Shown here one piece after another: positions 48,302 to 60,316 of a stretch of DNA of 64,000 nt. The notes beneath the pieces were generated by a model. That model was not told the origin of the DNA. It did no database searches and saw only the letters and a program-made list of their open reading frames with translations. The position numbers and the translations under genes are program-made. The stretch's first letter is position 1. Every line of letters begins with the position of its first letter. This stretch comes from an uncultured Syntrophobacteraceae bacterium. GTDB taxonomy: Bacteria; Desulfobacterota; Binatia; UBA9968. The DNA lies in the NCBI GenBank assembly GCA_964404195.1, contig CAYOJC010000002.1:38886-102885 (forward strand), written 5' to 3'.

Positions 48302-48573
48302 AGCTACTTCTCCTTAGGATAAAACTAGAACGTGCTTCGACGGGCTCAGCACGAACGGAAAAAATTCGACGACTTCAGCTTCCACTCCGTTCGCCCTGAC
48401 CCCTCGACAGGCTCGGGACTAAAGGCTGTCGAGGGGCCTGCCCTGAGGCCCCTCGAAGGGTCGAAGGGTGAACGTTGATCGCAGCGCCCGGCCCGATACG
48501 ACGAAGGCGCCCGAGGATCAAGGCGCCTTCTATAAAAGACTAACGGACCGGCCGGAATGCGCAGAGCAGCAGC

Positions 48574-53940: not shown

Positions 53941-56358
53941 TCATGCAAGCTCCTTATTTTCCAACGCCACTACCACCCTTCCAGTTTTGGTTTTGAAGTT
54001 TCGAGTCTCACGCACCGGCCATTCCCGGTCTTTCAGCGCCTGCGCGACGCGCTCCATCACGCCCAGCCAATCGTCGAGCGCGGTCTGGCGGAAAAGGCGC
54101 ATCGTCGGATACCACGGCGTGGTCTCGCCCTCCAAACCCCAGCGCCAATCCACCACCTCGCTCAGCAGCGTCCAGACCGGTTTACCCAAAGCGCCGGCGA
54201 CGTGCGCGACCGAAGTATCGACGCTGATGACTAAATCCAACTGCTCGACGATCACGGCCAGATCGCCGAAGTCGCCGAGCTTGGGATCGAGATCCTGCAC
54301 CTGAAGCTCGGTCGGAAGATCGGCCAAATCCCGCGCGCGTTCTCCTTTCTGCAAGCCGTAGAACGCGATGCCCGGAGTTTGGAGAACCGGCAGAAATTCT
54401 TTCAATGAAACGGAGCGATGACGATCGTTGCGATGCGTCGCGCTGCCGGCCCAGACGATGCCGACCTTGGGACAAGACGACTCGGGAAGGACGAGCGCCG
54501 GATTATCTTTGCGCCGGCGGATGGCCGAGACATCGATGTACGGCGTATCGGCCGGAATATTTTCTCGCGTCGCGCCGAAAATACGCGGCAGGCTAAGCAG
54601 CGGGATATGGGCGTCGAATTCCGCGACGCCGGTCTGTCCCGGCGCGCGGATCTGCGCGATGCCGGGGATAGCGGCGAAGATCGGCGTCAAATCGGCGGTG
54701 CACACCAGGACGAGCTTGCCGCAGCGCGCGGCGGCCTGCGGAATGTAGCGCGCGAACTGAATCGCGTCGCCCGCGCCCTGCTCGGTATGGACGAGCAGCG
54801 TCTTCTCCGGGATCGGAGTGCCGTCCCATTTGGGATGCGGACAGCGGAACGGAGTGAACTGTCCCGTGTGCCAGCGCCACTCGTATTCGACAAGTCCGCG
54901 CGCGTAATCGCCGACCAGCAGCAGATTCATGCCGAGATTAAAATGGGCTTGAGCATAATTCGGCTGCAGCTCGATCGCGCGCTCGTAATAGGGAATCGCC
55001 TTGTGCGGCTGCCGCTGCCGGCTGATGATGTATCCCAGACCGTTGTATGCCTCGGCGCGCTCGGGCTCGGCCTGAACGACTTTCTCCAGGCAGGCGGCCG
55101 CCTCCTCGCACTGCTCCGCGTCGCCGAGCGCGATGCCCAAATTATAGAGCGCGTTGGGAAACTCGGGTTGGATGGCGACGCAACGCCTGTAGGCGGCGAT
55201 CGCCTCGTCGAGCTTTCCTTTCCGGTAAAACTCGTTGCCGCGCTGGAAATGAAAACCCGGCGAGCGCGCCAGCTCTTCTTCGGTCGGCAGAATAACCTGC
55301 GCCAGCGCTTCGTCCGGCAGCACGTAGGATTGCGCGAGCCGCGGGTCGTTCCATTCCAACACCTCGGGAAAACGGATTCCTTGCAGCGCCTGGACGGCGA
55401 AGATCTCCTGCACGCCGGCCTCGAAGCGGAGAAAGCCGACGGTTTGCCCGGTTTCGATATTGACGACCCAGACTCCGCACGTGCGCTCGCGCAGCCGCTG
55501 GACCAAAGGGATGCCGCTGAAGACCGCGCTCTCGCGCACCTGCGAGAGGCCGATGAAGGCGAGCGGCCCGACGAAGTCTATTCCGCGGGTGAAACCCGGC
55601 ACTTGCGCCACCGTGCGCCACGAGTGCCGCTCGAGATCCACCTCGGCCAAACTTCCCTCGCCGGATTCCAGCACCCACAACTTATCTCGATACCAGCGCG
55701 GCGAGTGCGGCATCGAGAGACCGCGCAGCAAAATCTCGTTCGTCTCGATATCCATCAACAGGCCGCCTCTGGCCTTGTTCGCGCGCCAGCCGCCGGGCGT
55801 GTCGGTCTCGCCCAGAGCGGTGACGTATTTCGGGCGGCCATCGACCATCGCGAGGCCGTTCAAGTGGCAGCGGTCCTCGGGCGCGAGGCCGCTCAAGAAC
55901 GGCGGGCGCCAGCGGGGATAAAAGCTGTGGTCCCGGTCGAGCGTGCAGAGACAGCAGAAACGGGTGTTGACGATCCACAACTCGTTGTCGCGGTCCCAGG
56001 CGAGCTCGTGGATGTCGATGTCGCCGGTCACGTGAATACGCCGGGGAATATAGCAGCCGTCGTGCTTGCCGGGCGGCTCGAGCTTCACGGCCACCGCGGG
56101 CATGTTGCGGTATTCCCAAACCGTATTCGAGCCGCCGATCGTCAGGCGCGAGTGATCGGCGGCGATGCCCATCGGCTTGGCGAACGTGCGGAAATGGGTG
56201 TTGATCGTGCCGTTGTCGTTGCGGACGACGATCGCTTTGCCGGCCTGGTAGGTGGAAACGACGAGACTGATTCCGAGCCGGTCCAAGAGAGCGGGAAGAT
56301 TCGCGGTGTGTACGCTGCGCAACTCAGCGTCGGGAGACAATGGCGGGGCTTCAGACAT
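53941..56358 (-). CDS. three-part fusion protein: N-terminal TIGR03032-like domain, central TPR repeats, C-terminal GT9 glycosyltransferase
   Basis: 805 aa. Residues about 1-330 form a conserved uncharacterised domain (CGVWVVNIETGQ), followed by TPR repeats (AEAYNGLGYI..., AQAHFNLGMNL). The C-terminus has GT9 blocks (KVGIVWAGS...DTSVAHVAGALGKPVWTLL). Confidence 0.7.
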   Translation of the reverse strand: MSEAPPLSPDAELRSVHTANLPALLDRLGISLVVSTYQAGKAIVVRNDNGTINTHFRTFAKPMGIAADHSRLTIGGSNTVWEYRNMPAVAVKLEPPGKHDGCYIPRRIHVTGDIDIHELAWDRDNELWIVNTRFCCLCTLDRDHSFYPRWRPPFLSGLAPEDRCHLNGLAMVDGRPKYVTALGETDTPGGWRANKARGGLLMDIETNEILLRGLSMPHSPRWYRDKLWVLESGEGSLAEVDLERHSWRTVAQVPGFTRGIDFVGPLAFIGLSQVRESAVFSGIPLVQRLRERTCGVWVVNIETGQTVGFLRFEAGVQEIFAVQALQGIRFPEVLEWNDPRLAQSYVLPDEALAQVILPTEEELARSPGFHFQRGNEFYRKGKLDEAIAAYRRCVAIQPEFPNALYNLGIALGDAEQCEEAAACLEKVVQAEPERAEAYNGLGYIISRQRQPHKAIPYYERAIELQPNYAQAHFNLGMNLLLVGDYARGLVEYEWRWHTGQFTPFRCPHPKWDGTPIPEKTLLVHTEQGAGDAIQFARYIPQAAARCGKLVLVCTADLTPIFAAIPGIAQIRAPGQTGVAEFDAHIPLLSLPRIFGATRENIPADTPYIDVSAIRRRKDNPALVLPESSCPKVGIVWAGSATHRNDRHRSVSLKEFLPVLQTPGIAFYGLQKGERARDLADLPTELQVQDLDPKLGDFGDLAVIVEQLDLVISVDTSVAHVAGALGKPVWTLLSEVVDWRWGLEGETTPWYPTMRLFRQTALDDWLGVMERVAQALKDREWPVRETRNFKTKTGRVVVALENKELA

Positions 56359-56465
56359 AGCGCTACGAATCTGCGCTACATAATCTCTAGTGTAAGAGTC
56401 GTTGTCAAATGCTCACATTACCGGTGGTTTGAAAGGAAAATGCCAGAAAAAACGCACCGGCGAAA

Positions 56466-57845
56466 TTACGGCTCTTTTTCGAAAGAACCGATGTCGCAGA
56501 GTGTCCCCTGCGGCCGCAACACGCCGCGCTGGTCGCCTGCGGGACAGTCGCCATCGGCCGGCGCCGCGTCGATCGCCGGACTGCCGGTAACAAGCGCATG
56601 CGTCTGCGTCGGGCCGCCGTTGGCGGCGAGAGGCACCAGGATAGCGCTGATGAACACGCCCGATCCTGGAACGATGTCGCTGGCTCCCGGCGAAAAACCG
56701 CGGACACCGTCGTAGTTGTTGGTGCCGAAGAGATTGTAATTGTCCCTCGTCACCGTGCCGGAGAAGCGGTCGATCTCGCGGCCGAAGAACGCCTGATTGC
56801 CGGATATGAGACTGCGCTTAAGCGTAAGATCGCGCGCGGTGAATATTCCGCCGCCGTCGCCGGCGTTGTTTCTCGCGATCGTGCTGTTGGAAACAGTCAG
56901 CGTCGCCCGGTTGTAAACCCCGCCGCCTACCGCTGCTTTATTGCCGGATATGGTGCTGTTCTCGACCAGCGTCTCGCTCGACCGATCGTAGATGCCGCCG
57001 CCATAGCCGAAAAATCCCGTCTTGTTGCCGGATATCGTGCTGTAAGTGATCGTGGCGGCGCTGTCGCGATTATGCATTCCGGCGCCGTCGCGGCCGGAAG
57101 TATTTTTGGAAATCGTGCTGTACGCGATGTCGAGGGTACCTGCATATTCGTAAATGCCGCCGCCGTCGACGATCGCCTTGTTGCCGGTGATCGTGCTGTT
57201 GGTGATGCTGACGGCGCCGCTGTAATCGTACACTCCGCCGCCGTAGCCGGCTGTATTCTTCGAAACGGTGCTGCCGTCGATGTTGAGGACGGCGGCCGCG
57301 CCATTGAATACGCCACCACCCAAGTTGGCTTTGCTCCCGGTGATGGTGCTGTCGTTGATGGTGAGAGTGCCGTAGTTAAATATCGCGCCGCCATGATTCT
57401 GCGACCCGCCGCTCACGGTCACATTCGACAGGGTGAGATCCCCGGAACTTTCCACCGCAATCAGACGAAACGACGCGCCTTTTTTACCGGCGATCTTGCC
57501 GCCGTTTCCCTCAATGGTGATTTCGCTTGTAATGGTCGGCAACCCTGTGGCGCCAAAATAGTTGGTGAACTTGTTTGTGACCGTATGCTTGCTCGCCGCC
57601 GGCAGTTGAATGACGTCGGCGCCGCTGCCCGCCACGCAGTCGGAGTGAGTCGCCGCGTCATCGTTCGCATTGATGATCGCCTCGATCAGCGAGCATTGCC
57701 CGTCCGACTTGATCTTTGGAACATTGGTGTCAACGGTGATCGTCGCCGCGTGACCTACTCCATGTCCCAATGCAAGCAACAACGCCGCTCCGGCCAACGT
57801 GCGCGCGAGTTTGTGTTGCAGAGCGATTCCATTGCCACGCTGCAT
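56466..57845 (-). CDS. secreted polymorphic-outer-membrane-protein-like beta-helix repeat protein with N-terminal CSLREA-type domain
   Basis: Start trimmed to MQRGNGIALQHKLARTLAGAALLLALGHGVGHA (signal peptide). CSLIEAIINAN motif, then about 10 Pmp-type repeats (GGAIFNYGTLTINDSTITGSKANLGGGVFN...). C-terminal CPAGDQRG...CDIGSFE. Confidence 0.7.
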   Translation of the reverse strand: MQRGNGIALQHKLARTLAGAALLLALGHGVGHAATITVDTNVPKIKSDGQCSLIEAIINANDDAATHSDCVAGSGADVIQLPAASKHTVTNKFTNYFGATGLPTITSEITIEGNGGKIAGKKGASFRLIAVESSGDLTLSNVTVSGGSQNHGGAIFNYGTLTINDSTITGSKANLGGGVFNGAAAVLNIDGSTVSKNTAGYGGGVYDYSGAVSITNSTITGNKAIVDGGGIYEYAGTLDIAYSTISKNTSGRDGAGMHNRDSAATITYSTISGNKTGFFGYGGGIYDRSSETLVENSTISGNKAAVGGGVYNRATLTVSNSTIARNNAGDGGGIFTARDLTLKRSLISGNQAFFGREIDRFSGTVTRDNYNLFGTNNYDGVRGFSPGASDIVPGSGVFISAILVPLAANGGPTQTHALVTGSPAIDAAPADGDCPAGDQRGVLRPQGTLCDIGSFEKEP

Positions 57846-58438
57846 CCACTCCGGCAAAACCGCCGCCAGTTCTGGCGAGCGCGCCAGTTGACGCTGCAGC
57901 GCGCGGCGAGCGCCACGCGGCAACTCGCGCAACTCGGCGTAGCAAAGCGCGAAGCGCGGGAACAGCTCGTTTGCGGCGTGGGTGAGCGCCTCCGCTAAAG
58001 ACGAATTTTCCGCCGCTTGCGAGACCTGCGAGTCCCACGCAGCGAGTACCGTCTCGTCTGGCGGAAGTGACAATGGTCTGAAATAGTTCATGGGTGCCCC
58101 CTAATATCTAGCGAATCCGACCTTCTGCGTCAGGTTGGGAAACAATGAGACCGGTACGAGTGGGCCAAAAGGCAGGTATCGACGCGTGGATGTTGCACAC
58201 GCTACATGGGACATAATGGTAAAACCCCAAAAACGTAAACGGGCAGCACTCGGTTAGACGCGGATCTCAGAAAAAGGTTTACAGACGCGAAAATACGGAG
58301 GGTTTGTTGAGAAGTCGAGCCGCCCTACGCAGTCTGCATATGGACTTAACCTTCGCCGGGTATTCACCGCATTGAACAACCCGTGCCGGGAAATTAGGAT
58401 ACCGATCGTCCTTTTCTTAAGACTCCACTCTAGGGCAT

Positions 58439-58660
58439 CTAATTTTTGATCAGTATTTTACAAACCCCTGTCCTGCCCGCATGCCCTACGGCGTCGAGCG
58501 CTCCACTCAGCGGATAAATCTTTTCGATCATCGGCGTGACGGCGATTTTTTTCTGCGCGAGCGCGTCGAGTGCCGGAGGAAAGACGCCGCAGCGGGAGCC
58601 GATGACGGTGATCTCGTTGACGACAAGCGGCGAGAGCGGAGAATTCTTTAGCCGCCTCAA
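58439..58660 (-). pseudogene. duplicated 3' fragment (about 73 codons) of the Zn-dependent alcohol dehydrogenase gene
   Basis: ...VVNEITVIGSRCGVFPPALDALAQKKIAVTPMIEKIYPLSGALDAVGHAGRTGVCKILIKN parallels the C-terminus of 59224-60177. Positions 58524-58620 are 97/97 identical to 59309-59405. Confidence 0.8.
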
Positions 58661-58750
58661 CCCGATCCTGTCGGACGGCTGATGGAGGGGACAGCCATTT
58701 CATCATTTAAGCGCTACCCCGAGCTTGTTCCCAAATTGAGAACGGGGTAG

Positions 58751-58816
58751 TTGGTTTACATTCGGTTTCTCGGCACCCAAGCGGAGTACGACAAGATCAA
58801 CGCAGAGGAGATTTGA
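58751..58816 (+). pseudogene. HigB-type toxin remnant (last ~21 codons only)
   Basis: LVYIRFLGTQAEYDKINAEEI* matches the conserved C-terminal tail of HigB/COG4680 toxins (...IRFIGTHAEYDKI...). It is preceded in frame by TAG, and its TGA lies 1 nt before the higA ATG. Confidence 0.45.
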
Positions 58817-58817
58817 C

Positions 58818-59168
58818 ATGACGATTAAACCGATCAAAACAGAGCGCGATTACCAGAAGGCGCTTAAGGAGATCAAGAGACTCTGGGATACCAAACCGAA
58901 CAGCCCCAAGGGAGATCGATTGGAGGTGCTGGTTACTTTAGTCGAGGCGTATGAGCGGAAGCATTACAAGATTGAGCCCCCCGATCCAGTTGAGGCCATA
59001 AAGTTCCGCATGGAACAGCTTGGGCTCAAGGCGTCGGACCTCGCTAAAATTCTGGGCGGCCGAAGCCGCGTGTCGGAAGTTCTCAACCGGAAAAGGAAAC
59101 TCACAGTTGATATGATGCGCTCGTTACGGAAGCGCTTGGACATCCCCGCCGAATCGTTGCTGGCCTAA
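58818..59168 (+). CDS. higA: HigA-like HTH antitoxin (COG5499-type)
   Basis: 116 aa. TERDYQKALKEIKRLWDTKPNSPKGDRLEVLVTLVEAYERKHY plus an HTH (GLKASDLAKILGGRSRVSEVLNRKRKLTVDMMRSLRKRLDIPAE). Confidence 0.7.
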   Translation: MTIKPIKTERDYQKALKEIKRLWDTKPNSPKGDRLEVLVTLVEAYERKHYKIEPPDPVEAIKFRMEQLGLKASDLAKILGGRSRVSEVLNRKRKLTVDMMRSLRKRLDIPAESLLA

Positions 59169-59223
59169 GCAGAACTCAGTCCTGCGGTTGACGCCGCCAA
59201 CGCGGCGCACCAGAGCCTCGCTG

Positions 59224-60177
59224 TTAAGACCTCAGCAAAATTTTTCGTGCTCCCGCCTTCCCCGCGTGGGCGACCGCCTCGATTCCTTCACTTAACGGGT
59301 AGACCTTCTCGATCATCGGCGTGACGGCGATTTTTTTCTGCGCGAGCGCGTCGAGTGCCGGAGGAAAGACGCCGCAGCGGGAGCCGATGACGGTGATCTC
59401 GTTGATCACGACGGGAGCGAGGGAAAGCCTGTGCTCTTCGGCGCAAGTGCTTTTGAGCACGAGCGTGCCGCGCGGGCGTACGGCGCTGAGCGCCGTCTCC
59501 AGACCGGAGCTTGAGCCGGTCGCCTCGACGACGATATCCGCCGATTGCGGCTTCCAGTCGGCGAGCAATACCGTGCGGACGCCCGCTGCCTTCGCTAGCC
59601 GCAGTTTGTCGGGATGTTTGCCGACGAGCGTCACGCGCGCGCCCGTGAGCGCAACGACTTGCGCGCAGAGGAGACCCAGCTTGCCGTCGCCGAAAACCAG
59701 AACCTCGCGCGTGAAGTCGATCTCGACCTGTTCGAGGATTTCAAACGCCGCGGCCAGCGGCTCGGTAAAAACCGCCTCTTCGTCGGAGACACCGTCGGGG
59801 ACCAGGTGAAGATTTCGCGCCGGCACGGCCACGGCTTCGGCGAAGCAGCCGTCCGCGCCGAGAATTCCCATGACTTGTCGCTTGGCGCAGTGGCGGCCCA
59901 GCCCGCGCCGGCAAAACTCGCAGCGGCCGCAGGCGAAGTTGATCTCGCCGACGACGCGCTTGCCCATGAACGCGGGCGGCCCTTCGACCGCCTCGCCGAC
60001 GAACTCGTGGCCCGGCACGCCGCGAAATCCCATGTAGCCTTTGAATATCTGTAAATCGGTGGAGCAGATGCCGGCGAGACGCACGCGCACGAGCGCCTGA
60101 TCGCGCACCGGCTCCGGCGACGGCTGCGACGCTTTGAGCGTTAACTTCTGCCCGTCCCAGTAAAGAGCTTTCATGGT
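59224..60177 (-). CDS. zinc-dependent alcohol dehydrogenase family (MDR superfamily) oxidoreductase
   Basis: Start MKALYWDG at 60177; the 5' part of track ORF 59224-60633 is Arg-rich noise. GHEFVGEAVE and CGRCEFC structural-zinc motif, plus a Rossmann fold. Confidence 0.8.
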   Translation of the reverse strand, partial: TMKALYWDGQKLTLKASQPSPEPVRDQALVRVRLAGICSTDLQIFKGYMGFRGVPGHEFVGEAVEGPPAFMGKRVVGEINFACGRCEFCRRGLGRHCAKRQVMGILGADGCFAEAVAVPARNLHLVPDGVSDEEAVFTEPLAAAFEILEQVEIDFTREVLVFGDGKLGLLCAQVVALTGARVTLVGKHPDKLRLAKAAGVRTVLLADWKPQSADIVVEATGSSSGLETALSAVRPRGTLVLKSTCAEEHRLSLAPVVINEITVIGSRCGVFPPALDALAQKKIAVTPMIEKVYPLSEGIEAVAHAGKAGARKILLRS

Positions 60178-60316
60178 TCCAAAAACTGCTTTCCTTGGCG
60201 TGCTTTGCGTCTTTGCGCGAGTCGTGTGGTGTTCCTTCGAGACCTTCGTGTCCTTCGTGGTTAAAATCGTCTCACCACGAAGAGCACGAAGTTTGATGCC
60301 TCCTGCTTGCTGAATC

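Follow-up and report, generated by a model that had tools for sequence, protein, structure and literature searches.

A toxin-deleted higBA cassette inserted at the 3' end of an alcohol dehydrogenase gene in an uncultured Candidatus Binatia

Introduction

How did an antitoxin gene of the HigA type, preceded by a mere tail of its toxin, come to lie between two copies of the 3' end of an alcohol dehydrogenase (ADH) gene? The arrangement lies in a 64,000-nucleotide stretch of DNA from an uncultured Candidatus Binatia, referred to here as the window. The original prediction described a small element that had inserted at the ADH 3' end with its own copy of the target and had then lost its toxin, or, alternatively, a gene-conversion tract. 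Here, the locus is compared with related genomes, with sister copies of the cassette, and with known systems of similar anatomy.

Results

In close relatives (L001 and L002/L003), ADH is followed by ca. 350 nt and a 541-aa gene, with no interruption. Both loci are collinear with the window (94-98% identity over more than 8 kb), and each is without 785 bp that are present in the window. We therefore conclude that, in the window, 785 bp have been inserted at the ADH 3' end. The AhpC-DUF427-ADH synteny is conserved, and positions 58158-58620 are 93% identical to L001. The insert consists of a minimal, Escherichia coli-type higBA cassette with a foreign ADH tail on one side (the last 27 codons and a 55-nt spacer) and an ADH-derived stub of ca. 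35 nt on the other (Table 1). Placed head to tail and taken together with one copy of a 97-nt core, these arms make up one contiguous ADH 3' fragment. No recombinase is encoded in the insert (where higA is the only gene), in sister inserts (higBA only), or nearby. Within 10 kb on either side, the window had no extra gene relative to L002, whose neighbourhood yielded no recombinase among its Pfam calls. A search of positions 57900-59600 against Rfam gave no match; the insert had no phage matches, and plasmid matches were limited to family-level HigBA similarity.

Table 1. Features of the insertion and its surroundings, in window coordinates
Feature	Coordinates	Strand	Supporting comparison
Native intergenic DNA, from the start of the 541-aa gene to the original stop of ADH	58092..58438	.	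Collinear with L001/L002
Displaced native ADH 3' tail (stop and last 27 codons), pseudogene fragment	58439..58523	-	Continues the L001/L002 ADH after the core
Repeat copy A, ADH codons ~257-288, resident allele	58524..58620	-	97/97 with 59309-59405
ADH-derived stub (f_up) carried by the cassette, out of frame (5-nt deletion)	58621..58655	-	38/40 to L004 stub
Upstream spacer, specific to the ADH-associated cassette version	58656..58722	+	Common to L004 and L130/L131
Putative higBA operator/promoter remnant	58723..58750	+	Comparison with sister loci
HigB remnant, last 21 codons and stop	58751..58816	+	PF09907 positions 59-74 of 74, E=0.011
HigA antitoxin, intact, 116 aa, now orphan	58818..59168	+	HTH_3; E. 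coli HigA 5IFG_B
55-nt spacer separating the convergent stops of higA and ADH, imported with the cassette	59169..59223	.	Near-identical in L130/L131
Chimeric MDR/zinc-dependent alcohol dehydrogenase-family gene, 316 aa	59224..60174	-	ADH_N, ADH_zinc_N
Imported ADH tail, stop and last 27 codons (59227-59308)	59224..59308	-	60% identical to native tail
Repeat copy B, inside the functional ADH, resident allele	59309..59405	-	97/97 with copy A

The polarity of the exchange was read from the empty site. The L001 ADH tracks the intact gene of the window through the core and then continues into the fragment tail (39/43 identical over the distal part) and the DNA downstream of it (48/50). Because positions 58439-58620 match the empty-site ADH and run straight into the native downstream intergenic region, they represent the native end of the gene. 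Thus, the proposal that the element brought a copy of its target was right in that ADH-derived sequence was carried, but the copies were assigned the wrong way round: the cassette-borne parts are the stub and the last 27 codons of the intact ADH. In the 73-codon copy of the ADH C-terminus described in the original prediction, the first ca. 10 codons are out of the ADH frame owing to a 5-nt deletion, and the intact gene spans 59224-60174 rather than 59224-60177. Protein comparisons gave the same polarity. One database homolog (P0001) is 100% identical to the ADH, and hundreds in Binatia metagenome-assembled genomes (MAGs) are 70-94% identical. The closest ADH proteins (93-94% identity) have fragment-type tails (24-27 of 28 residues, against 15-18 of 28 for the intact-gene tail); for the closest full-length homolog, P0003, the values are 27/28 and 15/28. 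The imported tail matches that of sister locus L131 at 44/45 and 42/43 positions, counted as identical (97.9% with the spacer included), and at the protein level resembles tails of more distant ADH homologs (25/28 in P0093). As a result of the exchange, the last 28 residues of ADH and the residues that the displaced native tail encodes differ at 13 positions.

In an exact in-register comparison at an offset of 785, the two repeat copies were identical at 97 of 97 positions, as predicted, and the block occurs just twice in the window. Given 82% identity between other allele pairs of this segment, such a match has a chance probability of ca. 8e-9. The flanks are clearly diverged, which also agrees with the prediction: towards the gene 3' end, 51 of 85 positions (60%) are identical, and on the other side homology is gone within about 35 nt. 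Relative to the L001 ADH, the displaced copy is identical at 95/97 and the copy in the intact gene at 96/97 positions, i.e., both are of the resident allele. The edges of the block are abrupt (ca. 60% to 100% identity), and each coincides with a change of parentage: in the gene, the block gives way directly to the imported tail, and in the fragment it is directly preceded by the stub. Between the ADH copies of sister loci L130/L131, no exact match exceeds 17 nt, and no recombinase was found; an att site and a target-site duplication are therefore both rejected as explanations of the block. An insertion sequence or transposon was also rejected: there is no transposase ORF, the duplication is at least 97 nt, the inner flanks are themselves homologous to ADH, and no terminal inverted repeats were reported at the insert ends. 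A diversity-generating retroelement was rejected as well, there being no reverse transcriptase among the neighbours and no mismatches in the repeat, while the flanks differ at all base types. Judged from these allele comparisons, the block appears to be a piece of the resident allele bounded by two homologous-recombination junctions, or else a conversion tract. The alternative offered in the original prediction is the better account of the perfect block itself.

HigA is intact, as predicted. It matched HTH_3 above the cut-off (E=6e-6), TIGR02607 (antidote_HigA) below it, and, across residues 6-109, E. coli HigA 5IFG_B (E=7e-7). It is an antitoxin with an Xre/HTH_3 DNA-binding domain at its C-terminus and a homolog of characterised HigA. 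Proteins 97-99% identical to it adjoin full HigB elsewhere. No complete RelE-fold HigB lies directly upstream of higA in the window. What is left of the toxin gene matches the last 16 positions of the Pfam HigB_toxin family and is identical at 65 of 67 nt to the 3' end of the full, 97-aa HigB in sister locus L004. Relative to L004 and L130/L131, ca. 237 nt are deleted, comprising higB codons 1-76 and part of the presumed -10 box; positions 5697-5933 of L004 have no counterpart in the window. A clean microhomology junction for the deletion could not be defined.

The promoter was assigned provisionally, by comparison with the sister loci. There, a perfect palindrome (CTTGTTCCCAATTTGGGAACAAG; 11+1+11), overlapping the putative -35/-10 region, is followed by TATGCT and then by the GTG start of higB. 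In the window, the palindrome (58727-58743; GTTCCCAAATTGAGAAC) is degraded, with one arm mutated; the putative -35 element, TTGTTC, is kept, the putative -10 element, TATGCT, is broken by the deletion, and new 8-bp arms are found at 58714-58721 and 58743-58750. A simple promoter scan of the window made no call at this site; the fold of positions 58690-58760 had a z of -2.5. Positions 58661-58750 are higBA upstream and promoter sequence rather than HigB coding sequence, and 85 of the 89 positions from 58661 to 58749 are shared with L004 and L130/L131. The possibility that 58682-58750 is a frameshifted HigB was rejected, the same non-coding sequence being present upstream in L004. As had been proposed, only an orphan antitoxin remains: the toxin gene is reduced to 21 terminal codons, and the putative -10 box is damaged. 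Both the route of recombination and the expression status of higA are parts of our best explanation that we infer. On the other side of higA, the 55-nt spacer contains a GC hairpin (ca. 59190-59209), and no T-tract terminator was found between the higA and ADH stops.

The same insertion with an intact toxin was found in two other JGI samples (L130 and L131), in agreement with the proposal that the toxin was lost after insertion. The order there is 534-aa gene, ADH fragment, promoter, HigB, HigA, the same 55-nt spacer, the same imported tail, and ADH, with about 1.0 kb between repeats. A full 97-aa HigB occupies the same position in L004, L130, and L131 (PF09907, 6e-32), and the sister-locus toxin matched solved HigB in the PDB over residues 1-93 (E=6e-10). 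Between the window and the L004 fragment, the position of the stub-to-core switch agrees to within 14 nt. The allele behind the stub varies: it is L001-like in the window, L022-like in L004 (141/142), and, in L131, L022-like in the core followed by a WTEN-type (L004-ADH-like) distal tail. Since the L004 fragment core is the resident L022-type allele, the idea that the cassette carries a diverged core of its own ('core_m') was dropped. The stub matches the resident ADH upstream of the core at only 9 of 16 positions; the L130 stub and the L130 ADH allele agree at 14 of 16. L130 and L131 have identical left halves and different ADH alleles on the right, and the gene-side junction of L130 differs from that of the window and L131.

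The cassette itself is 94-98% conserved, while the L131 host flank is 74% identical to the window and 94.6% identical to L022. An old, vertically inherited insertion, in which the 97 nt are a recent intrachromosomal conversion and the empty-site relatives have lost the cassette between the repeats, would explain the abrupt identity boundaries and the presence of one allele in both copies; the L130/L131 ADH fragments are diverged, frameshifted, and older-looking, and deletion between the repeats would recreate exactly an L001-type locus. However, the fragment tail and the DNA downstream of it are also L001 resident sequence, and so far more than 97 nt is 'fresh'; moreover, better conservation of the cassette than of host genes across host backgrounds argues for recent transfer. 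We consider this explanation unlikely.

The perfect repeat, the higB deletion, and the combination of stub and L001-like core are all known from a single MAG contig; P0121 and P0001 are single-contig NCBI entries, and related strains clearly coexist in such samples. An empty-site strain could accordingly have been joined to the higBA locus of another strain through shared ADH-core k-mers during assembly. Yet the right junction (higA, spacer, imported tail, core, and ADH) and the stub-promoter junction were seen independently in L130/L131, and a chimera would still require a real molecule with the core on both sides of the cassette. In addition, the repeat is probably shorter than the final k of common assemblers, so that reads should have phased it. 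An assembly artefact is thus very improbable.

The ca. 690-bp higBA unit is also present in other contexts. Copies in L132 and L050 are without the upstream spacer, their similarity beginning at the palindrome, and the 55-nt spacer is unrelated to the sequence after higA in L004/L012. The pattern of higB truncation seen in the window recurs in L012-L021, L053, L095, and L122. In a HigA-based metagenome scan, an ADH fragment was found in 0 of 80 loci, and the 24-nt stub/promoter junction pattern had no match in metagenome contigs. An unrelated, RelE/MqsA-like TA family is found in the same ADH/TA/ADH-fragment arrangement in another Binatia lineage (L135-L140; polarity in the L135 lineage was read from protein-level comparison only), and a third TA family abuts the ADH stop with no duplication (L028). 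Both TA versions are compact, lying within 26-100 nt of ADH pieces.

Discussion

The kinds of elements involved here, a HigBA cassette, an orphan antitoxin, and replacement of a gene 3' end, are already known, and the locus is a real but fairly ordinary recombination scar. Like the K-12-type HigB/HigA pair of E. coli (YgjN/YgjM; PF09907 and HTH_3; PDB 5IFG and 5YCL), the cassette is a toxin-first operon, in which the stop of higB lies one base away from the start of higA and, judging by its sequence, a palindrome overlaps the putative promoter; unlike that pair, the window retains the last 21 toxin codons only and has a damaged -10 box. Antitoxins kept after toxin loss are common in surveys of E. 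coli and Klebsiella TA loci (PMC10790755, PMC7192599). As in such decaying loci, with which the anti-addiction idea is connected, the intact antitoxin has outlasted its toxin; in the window, the deletion also clipped the presumed -10 box.

The closest anatomical parallel is provided by e14 and phage 21 in icd, where a replacement tail is supplied, the native C-terminal fragment is displaced as the icdC pseudogene, and a chimeric or native gene is regenerated when the two copies recombine (PMC13626634). As there, an element sits in the 3' end of a protein gene that remains intact through a supplied, slightly different tail, and the flanking direct repeats, the displaced fragment, and empty sites in relatives were all found. 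However, e14 spans 15 kb, encodes a site-specific integrase, and has a fixed att core, whereas inserts of the window type are 0.8-1.0 kb and hold a TA pair only, with junctions and identity blocks that vary between copies; no tyrosine or serine recombinase was found in the insert, sister inserts, or neighbourhood. A constant core and crossover point is only partly contradicted by the 17 nt in L130/L131 (the switch point is shared with L004).

The shared architecture of icd, e14, and icdC (PMC13626634) would also fit a stump of a larger integrase-bearing island or prophage that used the ADH 3' end as attB, supplied a replacement tail, and then lost everything but its TA module. TA modules often survive island decay, and the stub-to-core switch point is common to two host alleles. 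On the other hand, even the full-length sister copies contain no integrase, the compactness of both TA versions and the 17-nt limit on identity among integrated copies speak against a decayed island, and no viral contig encoding this ADH fragment was found; for HigA, relatives from proviruses did not exceed 59% identity. Among 28 species-level genomes, none showed another ADH 3' end within 8 kb, a result by which the ADH 3' end was also rejected as a general duplication hotspot. Descent from an island is, in our view, decidedly improbable.

We consider it somewhat probable, from the sequence comparisons, that the cassette was inserted by host homologous recombination at ADH homology and that ca. 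237 nt of higB were deleted afterwards. The variation between copies of both the identity block and the alleles behind the stub was counted in favour of this reading. A shared stub-to-core switch is also predicted by a site-specific mechanism, yet the switch falls in the longest identical block between the alleles; a dedicated mechanism could also lie behind the recurrence of this architecture with a second TA family. On the homologous-recombination reading, the cassette would have entered, and would move between strains, through ADH homology and with no recombinase of its own. The product would be a chimeric ADH (native body, imported tail), then the cassette, then the displaced native 3' end, with the 97-nt repeat as the resident allele between the tail/core junction in the gene and the stub/core junction in the fragment. 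Both copies being fully resident-type, an identical donor core, gap repair, or conversion is needed, rather than one simple reciprocal crossover with a diverged donor; the repeat may thus date from the integration itself, by a single crossover or gap repair with a near-identical donor, or from later conversion between the copies. Through the later deletion, higB codons 1-76 and some of the -10 box would have been lost, so that an orphan higA now follows the 21 terminal codons of the toxin gene. Neither a circular nor an excised form was seen.

In 2002, de Vries and Wackernagel reportedly described homology-facilitated (illegitimate) recombination of DNA with one homologous anchor. Homology-facilitated and Campbell-type single-crossover integration are known from laboratory transformation experiments. 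As in these processes, foreign DNA would have been fixed beside a conserved gene by one- or two-sided homology, the target is duplicated and mosaic, and variable crossovers favour the longest identical blocks; here, however, we infer the process from comparative anatomy in an uncultured lineage. The term homology-facilitated recombination is also used in PMC6382021.

A bolder and rather doubtful reading is that minimal TA cassettes of Binatia are integrase-free integrative elements, with the ADH piece of ca. 200 nt as a homology handle. Host RecA would integrate such a cassette into the ADH 3' end, the gene being repaired with the cassette tail; loop-out between the repeats would be possible, with the toxin penalising loss. 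If true, the RelE/MqsA-like (L135-L140) and L028 TA loci would be products of one general route of TA-cassette mobility.

Movement of small chromosomal TA cassettes with no recombinases of their own is poorly documented. The loci compared here form a series, comprising the empty site, the full cassette, the toxin-deleted cassette, the cassette outside the ADH context, and an equivalent arrangement around a second TA family. Across this series, a TA pair is seen to travel with a piece of a housekeeping gene, whose C-terminus it rewrites. For annotation, the 73-codon ORF is a pseudogene, the ADH a natural chimera, and the HigA an orphan. With the toxin now gone, the insert is predicted to be lost frequently and precisely by way of the perfect 97-nt direct repeat.

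An exact direct repeat and an imported ADH 3' end

In-register comparison at an offset of 785 revealed a single run of 97 identical bases between 58524-58620 and 59309-59405, as the original prediction had it; no third copy of the block was found within the window. The predicted divergence of the flanks was also seen: toward the gene 3' end identity fell immediately to 51/85, and on the opposite side discernible homology, with a 5-nt deletion, stopped after ca. 35 nt. At the ca. 82% identity found between other allele pairs of the same segment, the probability of 97 matches in 97 is near 8e-9. We therefore conclude that coding constraint does not account for the block.

The empty-site contigs L001 and L002/L003 match the window collinearly (94-98% identity across 8-15 kb; gene order AhpC, DUF427, ADH, ca. 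350 nt, 541-aa gene, TPR gene), and all lack 785 bp of it. The L001 ADH tracks the intact ADH of the window through the end of the 97-nt block with one mismatch, and beyond it tracks the tail of the displaced ADH fragment and the DNA downstream of that fragment. The nearest full-length ADH proteins (93-94% identity) match fragment-type ends at 24-27 of 28 residues, versus 15-18 of 28 for the intact-gene type. Judging from this switch and from these ends, 58439-58620 and 58092-58438 are the native sequence; the imported part comprises the cassette, the 55-nt spacer, and the final 27 codons of the intact ADH (59227-59308). The ADH is thus a natural chimera: compared with what the displaced native tail encodes, 13 of its 28 C-terminal residues are different. 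Imported-type tails occur naturally in more distant homologues (P0093, 25/28). An element that had inserted carrying a copy of the ADH end was originally proposed. The insertion is supported by the 785 bp without counterpart in the relatives, but the supposed copy at 58439-58620 is the native one, and it is the tail of the intact gene that is imported.

Genes of the locus

Features of the ADH-higBA locus (window coordinates)
Feature	Position	Size and start	Evidence
ADH gene	59224-60174	316 aa, ATG at 60174	ADH_N and ADH_zinc_N domains
HigA ORF	58818-59168		HTH_3 domain; match to solved E. coli HigA 5IFG_B (E=7e-7)
HigB remnant	58751-58816	21 codons	final 16 positions of PF09907 HigB_toxin matched
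Non-coding higBA upstream sequence	58661-58750		no toxin remnant

The ADH gene is shorter than the 59224-60177 first assigned to it; hundreds of homologues of its 316-aa product, at 70-94%, were found, the majority from Candidatus Binatia MAGs. The HTH_3 and 5IFG_B matches of HigA confirm the proposed antitoxin, its match to TIGR02607 being below threshold. The HigB remnant is identical at 65/67 nt to the 3' end of the full 97-aa HigB gene of related loci, the product of which matches solved E. coli HigB (E=6e-10); together with the PF09907 match, this identifies the tail peptide as a HigB C-terminus, as had been suspected.

The 541-aa neighbour (56466-58091, minus strand) combines a choice-of-anchor Q domain with a rhombotarget A-like repeat region, and its internal ca. 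78-nt periodic repeats account for repeat families D2-D4 (56848-57355). A 765-aa ORF (54418-56715, plus strand) was rejected as a gene, being the antisense shadow of the minus-strand TPR/DUF4915 gene, which is homologous to 803-805-aa genes of L001/L002/L004. The intergenic region separating the DUF427 gene stop from the ADH start contains an 18-nt inverted repeat (60244-60291, 89% complementary, 12-nt loop). An 82-nt GC-rich segment (48387-48467), single-copy in the window, is 96% identical to L002:8145-8226, located non-syntenically between a xanthine-dehydrogenase-like gene and AhpC; it is a possible small dispersed repeat. In a Binatia MAG (L033:8807-8947), the ADH ortholog is apparently frameshifted near its 3' end, with the protein called at 286 aa (P0065).

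Toxin deletion and the putative higBA promoter

Two loci from two other JGI samples, L130 and L131, have the arrangement of the window with the toxin intact, in the order 534-aa gene, intergenic region, ADH fragment, upstream region, HigB (97 aa), HigA, spacer, imported tail, ADH. The 55-nt spacer and imported tail are common to all three, and L131 1137-1843 is 96.9% identical to window 58751-59457. Compared with these loci and with L004, which also has intact HigB, ca. 237 nt (L004 5697-5933) are absent from the window, in agreement with the predicted toxin loss. The cassette is a member of the E. coli-type HigBA family that lacks a complete toxin; HigA, itself whole, is thus the orphan that had been predicted. 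Orphan antitoxins are common (PMC10790755, PMC7192599).

In intact copies, a perfect palindrome, CTTGTTCCCAATTTGGGAACAAG, overlaps the inferred -35 (TTGTTC) and -10 (TATGCT) elements, and the higB GTG start lies 5 nt beyond the inferred -10. The window has one mutated palindrome arm and an inferred -10 of TAGTTG, which puts higA transcription in doubt. New perfect 8-bp inverted arms, CTACCCCG (58714-58721) and CGGGGTAG (58743-58750), flank the higB deletion junction and the degraded operator palindrome; sister loci have AAGGTATG in place of CGGGGTAG. The arms may reflect a quasi-palindrome template-switch event.

Genes for higB reduced to the last ca. 21-28 codons before intact higA, with unrelated upstream sequence, were also found in L012-L021 (e.g., L012:5829-6011), L053:1196-1270, L095:154-237, and L122:475-543, the cut in L012-L021 coinciding in position with that of the window. 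These recurrent cuts suggest that a cis element required for higA expression lies within the higB 3' end.

Mobile unit, junctions, and proposed mechanism

When L131 is compared with higBA copies from unrelated surroundings (L132, L050), similarity starts exactly at the palindrome and stops within 7 nt of the higA stop, defining a mobile unit of ca. 690 bp. The ADH-associated version (window, L130/L131, L004-L011) has an extra ca. 70 nt of private upstream sequence and an ADH-derived stub; in L004-L011 the site is not ADH, a block of Phd/PIN_3, ADH fragment, and higBA being found between the TPR and 534-aa genes. The cassette is 94-98% conserved across hosts whose flanking genes are 74-88% identical.

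The 16 nt of stub adjoining the 97-nt core are 13-15/16 identical among all copies versus 9/16 to the window's own ADH, the nearest ADH allele being that of L130 (14/16). What follows the stub varies: in the window, core and tail are of the L001 type (95/97; then 36/45, 39/43, 48/50); in L004, core and proximal tail are L022-type (141/142); in L131, an L022-like core with a 1-nt deletion gives way to WTEN-type (L004-ADH-like) sequence in the distal tail and downstream (42/43, 45/51). At the gene-side junction, the imported tail starts directly after the core in both the window and L131; L130, identical to L131 in its left half, has a different ADH allele and switches ca. 40 nt into the tail. 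The two ADH copies within L130/L131 have at most 17 identical nt in common. Taken with the cassette conservation, such junctions and alleles bear the signature of repeated homologous recombination within a recombining population, and not that of a fixed att site or a target-site duplication. However, the window and L004 share the position of the stub-to-core switch, which also coincides with the longest identical block (16-17 nt) between those alleles.

Neither the insert, nor the full sister inserts, nor the neighbouring DNA encodes a recombinase. Circular permutation of the insert joins stub, core, and imported tail into one uninterrupted ADH 3' fragment, the product that a Campbell-type single crossover leaves. 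Both 97-nt copies are entirely resident-type. This is expected from gap-repair integration, from integration from a donor with an identical core, or from later conversion, but not if a diverged donor entered by one simple reciprocal crossover. The gene-conversion tract originally offered as an alternative is one of these routes. Given the resident-type copies and the contiguous permuted fragment, we lean toward the 97 nt being a resident stretch between two recombination junctions. An old insertion, with the identity merely due to recent intrachromosomal conversion, seems unlikely. A stump of an integrase element would match the e14/icd architecture, but the lack of a recombinase and of a constant core makes it still less probable, and an assembly chimera is hardly credible because both cassette junctions were observed independently.

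Recurrence at ADH 3' ends

Other short ORFs for ADH C-termini emerged when the fragment peptide was used as a query. One occurs in L135-L140, a lineage with an ADH ca. 71% identical to that of the window: ADH is followed by an MqsA/HTH antitoxin and PF06296 RelE-like toxin, convergent with it, and these by a 74-aa ADH fragment (L135:4992-6891; also L136-L140). The TA family differs from that of the window, but architecture and orientation match. The fragment begins ca. 7 codons later than the window's stub, and the longest exact repeat is only 17 nt. The closest ADH homologues of that lineage match the fragment's core at 32-33/34 versus 29-30/34 for the gene's, which weakly suggests the same polarity as in the window. 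At L028:8948-10421, a third TA family (HTH_3 antitoxin, PF05015 HigB-like toxin) lies convergently 22 nt past the ADH ortholog stop, followed by Phd/PIN_3, with no ADH duplication. An ADH-tail pseudogene with an in-frame stop (L016:2343-2480, minus strand), inside a PIN/Phd/VapB TA island, is nearer to the window's imported tail (75.7% nt) than to the native one. A duplicated ADH end was found in 0 of 28 species-representative genomes. In Binatia, toxin-first TA cassettes have thus landed repeatedly at the ADH 3' flank, and the unequal boundaries of the fragments speak for independent recombination rather than a single site-specific system.

Discussion

The locus falls within already known kinds: the HigBA family, orphan antitoxins, and gene-end replacement, in which the window ADH resembles icd/e14/icdC (PMC13626634), although its insert has no integrase. 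That integrase-free movement of TA cassettes via a homology handle is a general mobility route is a doubtful proposition at present, and unless a general mechanism is demonstrated the locus would not surprise specialists. As a well-documented locus it nevertheless offers lessons for annotation and for TA mobility.
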